From the IMG/VR virus record IMGVR_UViG_2541047909_000002: DNA of 16,681 nucleotides. One strand, given 5' to 3'. A program made the translations under genes and the position numbers. Below the pieces are notes generated by a model. The model saw only the letters and a list, made by a program, of their open reading frames with translations, was not told the DNA's origin and did not search any database. Shown piece by piece: positions 7,086 to 7,256 of the stretch. Positions within the stretch are counted from its first letter, which is position 1; the number at the start of each line of letters is the position of its first letter. The DNA is from a virus. Its lineage: Duplodnaviria; Heunggongvirae; Uroviricota; Caudoviricetes.

Positions 7086-7256
7086 TCAGGCTACAGCTTT
7101 AAGATTTGTCTGGAATACTTTGTTGCAATGAGGGCAGATCAAAAGGGCACCTTTTTGTACTCTTGAAAAACTGTGTTCTGACTCTTGGGTGCAGTTTGGG
7201 CAGGAACATTTAACGAGATAATTACGGCGTGATTTTGAGTTTTTACGTTCTGACAT
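7086..7256 (-). CDS. Small zinc-ribbon protein (56 aa, CxCPNC...CPHC)
   Basis: Minus-strand ORF MSERKNSKSRRNYLVKCSCPNCTQESEHSFSRVQKGALLICPHCNKVFQTNLKAVA with AGGA 7 nt upstream of the ATG at 7256; may correspond to a small Qin protein (ynfU-like), which I cannot verify. Confidence 0.45.
   Translation of the reverse strand: MSERKNSKSRRNYLVKCSCPNCTQESEHSFSRVQKGALLICPHCNKVFQTNLKAVA

Follow-up and report, generated by a model that had tools for sequence, protein, structure and literature searches.

A short open reading frame on the minus strand between cspB and the lysis genes of a Qin-type prophage raises three linked questions: whether it is a genuine gene, whether it belongs to the phage or to the host, and what its product might do. 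The window considered here, i.e. the whole stretch of 16,681 nucleotides that was analysed, had received an initial annotation made from the letters alone. This had noticed the 56-aa frame, two cysteine pairs spaced as in a zinc ribbon, a plausible ribosome-binding site and a direction of transcription opposed to that of the late operon, and had suspected that a small zinc-binding protein of Qin might already be known.

The frame was found where it had been placed. It starts with ATG (7256..7254), stops with TGA (7088..7086) and translates into MSERKNSKSRRNYLVKCSCPNCTQESEHSFSRVQKGALLICPHCNKVFQTNLKAVA. Both cysteine groups were seen in the translation, CSCPNC providing C17, C19 and C22 and CPHC providing C41 and C44, with 18 residues separating the two CPxC knuckles. 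The coding strand is opposite to that of cspB, of the holin gene and of ydfR, rrrQ and rzpQ, and the presumed ribosome-binding site corresponds to an AGGA sequence at a suitable distance from the ATG. The features of the window are listed in the table.

Table. Features of the window discussed in the text (positions are those of the window).
Feature	Position	Strand	Remarks
ynfU ORF	7086..7256	-	56 aa + TGA stop; basic C4 zinc-ribbon protein
Shine-Dalgarno AGGA	7264..7267	-	7 nt upstream of the ynfU ATG; read from sequence
-10-like promoter element GTG-TACTGT	7284..7292	-	Putative, from conservation; family consensus gTGTAtgGT
Alternative sigma-70-like match TTGAAA-18-AATAAT	7315..7344	-	Consensus scan, 10/12 matches
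G+C-rich hairpin between convergent cspB and ynfU	7004..7023		Terminator scan, + strand
cspB	6507..6722	+	Convergent with ynfU, on its downstream side
cspB with cspA-type thermoregulator 5' UTR	6346..6738	+	Rfam RF01766, full-length, 158.8 bits
P21-type holin essQ/essD	7476..7691	+	Pfam PF04971
cspI with full-length cspA-type thermoregulator leader	9248..9633	+	RF01766, 112.8 bits
YmcF-like small zinc-ribbon-like protein	9617..9805	+	PF23641, E 1.7e-32; directly after cspI
ynfN	9878..10108		No Pfam family
IS009 RNA family match	13142..13340	+	RF02111, full-length, 221.5 bits (gathering 117); distal part of the prophage, near nohA and tail-fibre remnants

This ORF is, with high confidence, ynfU (b4776; PMC9976479), the 'putative zinc-binding protein YnfU' of the Escherichia coli Qin prophage, a confidence that concerns the identity and anatomy of the gene and not its mechanism. 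The product matched Pfam family PF23499 with 107.3 bits (cut-off 27; E 3.5e-31), residues 1-49 covering profile positions 1-49 of 49, and NCBIfam family NF038384 with 79.4 bits (cut-off 36; E 1.1e-22), residues 1-51 covering profile positions 1-51 of 52. It displayed the core of this family, namely two CPxC knuckles and the pattern SEHS...(R/K)V.K...L.CP.C..LF within about 50-60 residues; S26, E27, H28, S29, K35, L39 and F48 were invariant or nearly so (alignments A1, A4 and A5). The RefSeq product is WP_211180497.1 and the protein of K-12-type strains is identical to that of the window, no difference separating it from K-12 YnfU (b4776). A 501-nt query around the ORF matched 1,652 of the 5,426 complete E. 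coli genomes, in most cases with an identity of at least 99%, and RefSeq annotates the matching ORF as ynfU. Some strains, such as H1 (NZ_CP063515.1) and H17 (NZ_CP043295.1), carried an IS200C insertion within this 501-nt interval, the query aligning there as two segments separated by about 700 nt.

The initial annotation was right throughout, and so was its suspicion that the protein might be known: the gene itself is already annotated, named, shown to be translated and described as coding for a zinc-knuckle protein. Weaver, Mohammad, Buskirk and Storz discovered it in 2019 by ribosome profiling of initiation sites with Onc112 and retapamulin, detected the chromosomally SPA-tagged protein by immunoblot in MG1655 and pointed out its two CPXC zinc knuckles; YnfU was well expressed at 37 C in LB and ranked first in abundance among the newly identified proteins in the stationary-phase samples compared (10.1101/511675). 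A second, independent detection was obtained by PIRT-seq (PMC12350097). The literature mentioning ynfU contained neither a functional assignment nor data on cold induction, and database matches yielded no functional assignment either.

Translation from the annotated start is supported by these published profiling and tagging data and, here, by the conserved ATG, the conserved Shine-Dalgarno sequence and upstream in-frame stops. A longer version of 73 aa, starting at 7307 in the list of open reading frames, was also considered and was dropped because its N-terminal extension was not conserved, because in-frame stops occur upstream of the ATG (within 12 codons in 21 of 80 species, while 19 of the 80 lacked any upstream in-frame start) and because the PF23499 and NF038384 family HMMs both begin at the methionine of the 56-aa version. 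Many ynfU models in the databases are N-terminally overextended to 66-186 aa (P0002, P0007, P0010, P0014, P0027, P0050 and P0057), either reading through the conserved, putative promoter block (GTG TAT GGT, read as V-Y-G) or entering neighbouring sequence; some of them are misnamed, for instance as 'aspartate carbamoyltransferase regulatory subunit' or as 'Permease, cytosine/purine...'.

Selection on the frame was examined with one genome per species from the GTDB collection, which gave 80 loci encoding a YnfU relative. The frame was intact in all 80 species, with 51-60 codons and a start position common to all (78 ATG, two GTG). Among 74 distinct nucleotide sequences, median dN/dS was about 0.08 for unsaturated pairs; pN/pS amounted to 0.23 in the ynfU frame versus 0.38 to 2.4 in the other five. 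In each of those five frames, between 70 and 74 of these sequences contained stops. Variable sites numbered 30, 27 and 47 at codon positions one, two and three, respectively, so that 47 of the 49 third positions varied. C19, C22, C41 and C44 were invariant (80/80), and this part of the initial reading of the cysteines stood; C17 gave way to S or N in Atlantibacter and part of the Citrobacter, while distant relatives had I, V, S or T at its place, and it is therefore not a zinc ligand. The absence of a translation signal together with unconserved cysteines had been named beforehand as grounds for discarding the ORF; all 80 species had nevertheless kept the start codon, the Shine-Dalgarno sequence and the four cysteines of the CPxC knuckles. 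Being the single open frame of six, with dN/dS of about 0.08 and four invariant cysteines, ynfU is far beyond a chance ORF and is under strong purifying selection.

The idea that the ORF is fortuitous and that the real product is a non-coding or antisense RNA draws on the AT-rich, intergenic nature of the region and on the orientation of the ORF, antisense to the flanking genes. It is effectively refuted by the experimental detection of translation initiation and of the tagged protein (10.1101/511675; PMC12350097), as well as by the low dN/dS, the third-position variability and the frame kept intact in every species; ynfU itself displayed no Rfam match and its leader no conserved RNA structure.

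Upstream regions of ynfU aligned well despite wholly different flanking genes. Their consensus was ...aAA..GAGCtAT(~17 nt)cgTGTAtgGT..CAG.CCaTT.aAtCAGGAa...TATG, and nearly every one of the 73 distinct regions aligned kept (C)AGGA(A/G) where the Shine-Dalgarno sequence lies. A second block, located some 30 nt ahead of the ATG and including the hexamer TACTGT (7289..7284) in the window, was conserved throughout these 73 regions, the T, A, G and T positions of TAtgGT being invariant across 30 divergent species. The motif GTGTATGGT was retained in the distant chromosomal relative L089/L090 and was followed only loosely by L091/L094, which displayed GCGTAGGCT at that position. Two other explanations of this block were discarded. 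It reads V-Y-G in E. coli, but it is not coding because it shifts by 1-3 nt relative to the ATG from one locus to another and does not keep to one frame; it is not an RNA structure, since RNAalifold predicted zero pairs and no consensus structure in the leader alignment of 30 species. The block is best interpreted as the putative -10 element of a ynfU promoter, from which transcription would start about 20-25 nt before the ATG. The -35 region of this putative promoter matched the consensus poorly. An alternative sigma-70-like match (see table) was limited to Escherichia and Qin-type loci and was not conserved outside them; sigma-70-like sites were no more numerous in this region than in shuffled sequence.

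On the other side of the gene, the G+C-rich hairpin separating ynfU from cspB was predicted as a clear intrinsic terminator for cspB. It is probably also a terminator for ynfU, predicted to be weaker: RNA from the minus strand folds into the same 8-bp stem (z = -2.9), followed by a poor U-tract (UUUGAGAUU).

These elements bear on the second question, whether ynfU is a phage gene. In Qin, it is cargo (a candidate 'moron') within an AT-rich cspF-cspB-ynfU insert located between the Q antiterminator gene and the holin gene. It combines a -10-like element and a Shine-Dalgarno sequence, a hairpin common with cspB, a position within an AT-rich island (about 5600 to 7450, with 32-40% GC versus 45-50% in the flanking Q and lysis genes) and a strand opposite to that of the Q and lysis genes, the promoter and the terminator being predicted. 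K-12-type Qin displays the order ydfT(quuQ)-cspF-cspB-ynfU-essD-ydfR-rrrQ-rzpQ-cspI-ymcF-ynfR-ynfN-gnsB; in the window, as in K-12-type annotation, the holin gene essD is followed by ydfR (DUF1327), then by rrrQ and rzpQ. Like the morons of other lambdoid phages (bor and lom of lambda, or stx between Q and S), ynfU would be a self-contained transcription unit with a putative promoter and terminator; it has a composition distinct from its flanks and lies between phage operons on the strand opposite to late transcription. Such morons form a functional category rather than a homologous family, and the cargo of Qin differs from them in its nature: it is a cold-shock islet of host origin, cspF-cspB-ynfU, rather than a gene for virulence or exclusion.

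The same prophage carries two cold-sensing csp units (cspB and cspI) in addition to cspF, ynfN, the YmcF-like ORF and, in K-12-type annotation, ydfK. The YmcF-like ORF apparently starts with a non-canonical codon, and the list of open reading frames gives its last 36 codons only. In Qin, ynfN lies 2.6 kb from ynfU, after cspI, ymcF and ynfR.

The YnfU family is tiny: it comprised 49 clusters at 90% identity, and an exhaustive profile search of 1.84 billion representative proteins retrieved only 36 YnfU representatives at E <=1e-3. Every named host belonged to the Enterobacteriaceae, the few exceptions being MAGs with a wrong label or assemblies with contamination. The contigs in question were labelled Veillonella parvula MAG, Vagococcus sp., Kocuria sabuli, Bacillota MAG and Azospira oryzae MAG (L007, L029, L039, L041 and P0003); their sequences and neighbours were enterobacterial, L007 being 98% identical to the Qin type, and errors of binning or contamination are probable. 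Candidates for larger or fused relatives were rejected, P0050 and P0057 being gene-calling read-throughs of the same locus and P0067, P0070 and P0072 unrelated repeat proteins with CPxC motifs.

Most members of the family are chromosomal. The Klebsiella and Enterobacter loci examined had metabolic and stress genes as neighbours and no phage genes in the vicinity, and the distant relatives of 53-58 aa (P0060 and P0061) were stand-alone chromosomal genes without a csp neighbour. Everywhere examined, ynfU was monocistronic, with no conserved operon partner. A csp gene was found within 1 kb of ynfU in 58 of the 80 species, ynfN in 23 and ymcF in 13, at least one of these three in 62, and an EssQ-type holin gene in seven. 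The position initially noted between cspB and the lysis cassette is accordingly that of Qin, but lysis genes are not the usual neighbours of the family, as shown by these frequencies of holin (7/80) and csp (58/80). Overall, this is a mostly chromosomal family and not a phage family; the genes that recur beside it are ynfN, ymcF and csp genes of the cold-inducible kind.

Relatives of YnfU were encoded by eight of 50,697 phage records. Qin-type phages PhiR42_1, HannyBb, Tritos and 2H10 displayed the arrangement of the window. A Klebsiella phage carried ynfU head-to-head with a different holin gene and without csp, its YnfU being 90% identical to the chromosomal type of Enterobacter sp. Bisph1 and about 80% identical to Kosakonia types. 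In phage PHB10, an Enterobacter-type ynfU accompanied by csp genes lay near the integrase gene and umuDC, away from lysis genes. The phage copies were closest to three different chromosomal lineages, which argues that phages captured ynfU as cargo on at least three occasions, apparently from as many chromosomal lineages. ynfU has several landing sites, of which the Q-holin interval is one.

A role in the phage itself, either in the regulation of lysis, late genes or exclusion, or through antisense transcription opposing late read-through into the holin gene in the lysogen, appears highly improbable in this light. The head-to-head arrangement with the holin gene, ynfU lying divergently about 220 nt upstream of it, does recur in Qin-type prophages and in their functional relatives PhiR42_1, HannyBb, Tritos and 2H10, and again in the unrelated Klebsiella phage with its different holin. 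The scarcity of holin neighbours across the 80 species nevertheless speaks against such a role, as does strong purifying selection on a gene whose Klebsiella and Enterobacter loci, like those of two distant relatives, are chromosomal and situated among metabolic genes. PHB10 keeps its copy beside the integrase gene, umuDC and csp genes rather than beside lysis genes. The Q-S interval is a general cargo slot in lambdoid phages, so that position within it says little. YnfU was moreover rejected as a known anti-phage defence or phage family protein: PADLOC returned no family at E up to 1, and PHROGs nothing significant, the best match (E 0.0023) being to a family of no known function.

The csp neighbourhood took several forms. 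Downstream of ynfU, a convergent cspB-like gene was present in 40 species (36 + 4) and a tandem cspF-like gene in ten (9 + 1); the cspA thermoregulator (RF01766) was recognised on the csp gene adjoining ynfU in 16 of the 18 loci tested. Many species of the Enterobacter group displayed a conserved four-gene islet, at around 3600-4700 when ynfU is set at 4001, composed of a divergent ynfN about 150 nt upstream of ynfU, ynfU itself, a convergent cspB-like gene and, in part of the loci, a cspF-like gene beyond (L038, L040, L049, L064-L066, L072, L074, L080 and L081). In several Enterobacter species, the RF01766 model of the csp mRNA ended about 20-80 nt from the ynfU stop (4166-4183 in L038, 4166-4243 in L040, also L072 and others); it is therefore probable that the ynfU and csp transcripts have common or overlapping 3' ends, and they may interact as antisense RNAs. 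In Kluyvera georgiana (L078, 5538..5682), the SraC/RyeA and SdsR/RyeB pair of sRNAs was located about 1.4 kb downstream of ynfU, beyond a csp pair.

The csp linkage is limited to the closer, Enterobacteriaceae-type members of the family, as the distant ones have no csp neighbour, and may reflect in part an inherited gene order; inherited order combined with the transfer of whole modules, rather than functional coupling, could account for it. The E. coli group cspI-ynfQ-ynfR-ynfN was reported to be cold-induced or co-regulated (PMC6001520, PMC11228462). According to one reading of the islet, YnfU would be a component of an enterobacterial network of cold shock and RNA remodelling that binds RNA or the ribosome and acts with the cold-inducible CspB-type proteins encoded next to it, and lambdoid phages would have repeatedly captured the csp-ynfU islet for a low-temperature benefit to the lysogen or to phage development. 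This is unlikely in our estimation.

Another small protein of these islets calls for comparison. The 'cold shock small protein' YmcF/YnfQ resembles YnfU in its size (~60 residues), in its CPxC...CxxC pattern and in lying beside a cold-inducible csp gene in Qin, and it often occurs in the same gene islets; its knuckle spacing and conserved motifs differ. Homology between the two was rejected, as hhalign gave a probability of 1.3% (A1 versus A3) and YnfU displayed no PF23641 match.

The third question, that of function, was approached through the fold. A first model of YnfU (alignment A1) reached a pLDDT of 63 and gave nothing at E <1 with Foldseek. The AlphaFold model obtained with distant relatives added (A5) reached a pLDDT of 75 overall and 80-87 for residues 11-50, with predicted strands at residues 14-18, 25-29, 38-40 and 47-49 and a short helix at residues 30-35. 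Two zinc knuckles at beta-hairpin turns and a small sheet, as modelled, are the hallmarks of the Cys4 zinc-ribbon class, of which the fold is a generic example. In this four-stranded ribbon, C19/C22 and C41/C44 most likely serve together as ligands of a single Zn2+, and the invariance of these cysteines (80/80) supports their predicted role as ligands. A nearly invariant S-E-H-S-F-S-R-V-Q-K-G surface lay between the knuckles, and the N-terminal tail, modelled with low confidence, was rich in Lys and Arg. The pI of YnfU was 9.6, and the family was uniformly basic (pI 9.4-10.0).

Searches for remote relatives led to other zinc ribbons. A sequence profile search of the PDB returned Tim15 (E 0.014), L44e (E 0.038) and PA0128 (E 0.3), and the sub-threshold Pfam matches were to zinc-ribbon families (YjdM, SprT, the ATPase-domain ribbon of the GpA terminase, and DNL). 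None of the structure or family matches obtained with Pfam, the PDB profile search or Foldseek pointed above family threshold to a specific function. The PhnA/YjdM N-terminal zinc ribbon (PF08274) was rejected at 22.4 bits versus a gathering score of 30.8, PA0128 standing at the E value given above. Among generic Cys4 ribbons, LysW, L37Ae, L44e, the C-terminal ribbon of TFS/RpoM, the N-terminal ribbon of PhnA/YjdM (PA0128) and the archaeal ribosome-bound 9o17_AZ were compared, and none scored at family threshold; YnfU stands alone as a protein, carries an invariant SEHSFSRVQKG segment and a basic tail of its own, and has neither the acidic C-terminal tail of LysW nor the extensions of the ribosomal proteins.

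The DNL zinc finger (Tim15/Zim17/Hep1) was the best sequence match in the PDB and shares with YnfU the pattern C-x2-C-x3-S-x-H-[ST]-x-S...KG-x2-L-I-x-CPxC. YnfU was rejected as a member of that family (PF05180), with 13.5 bits versus a gathering score of 27 and no D-N-L motif; the residues following C44 read N-K-V-F-Q-T-N-L and were variable in the family. DNL fingers are not known to occur in bacteria as free proteins of 56 residues. According to another reading, YnfU would bind and modulate a larger protein, for example a chaperone or an enzyme in the way that DNL fingers escort Hsp70, rather than a nucleic acid. Many bacterial small proteins act by binding a larger protein, and we regard this as possible but rather doubtful: all scores were under family thresholds, the D-N-L motif is lacking and the region after the second knuckle varies, no operon partner is conserved beside the monocistronic gene, and the uniformly high pI and the Lys/Arg tail would better fit a polyanionic target.

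Handling of zinc itself, as a buffer, a sensor or a zinc-dependent paralogue switch, would agree with the annotation as 'zinc-binding protein' and with a Cys4 site that is the sole recognisable feature of YnfU. One structural Cys4 site in 56 residues is, on the other hand, typical of a ribbon stabilised by its zinc, no Zur-regulated or zinc-transport gene was found as a conserved neighbour, and the invariant SEHSFSRVQKG surface points to an interface beyond metal ligation; such a function is highly improbable.

The reading that we favour, tentatively and at well below even confidence, is that YnfU might be a small nucleic-acid-binding zinc-ribbon factor, targeting RNA or the ribosome. It would bind through its basic tail and its SEHS...RVQKG face, and would serve the csp-linked network of stress or cold adaptation of the host, not phage lysis. 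YnfU is not strictly a cold-shock protein, since it is well expressed at 37 C in LB.

The case of ynfU confirms that reading the sequence alone can be enough to find a genuine small-protein gene within an intergenic, AT-rich region of a prophage. To the YnfU family, this analysis adds a distribution, a csp gene neighbourhood and a conserved promoter-like element. The csp neighbourhood, the chromosomal origin, the selection and the promoter-like element direct attention to cold- or RNA-related phenotypes rather than to phage lysis, and this comparative context offers a modest, testable lead on an abundant small protein of E. coli.
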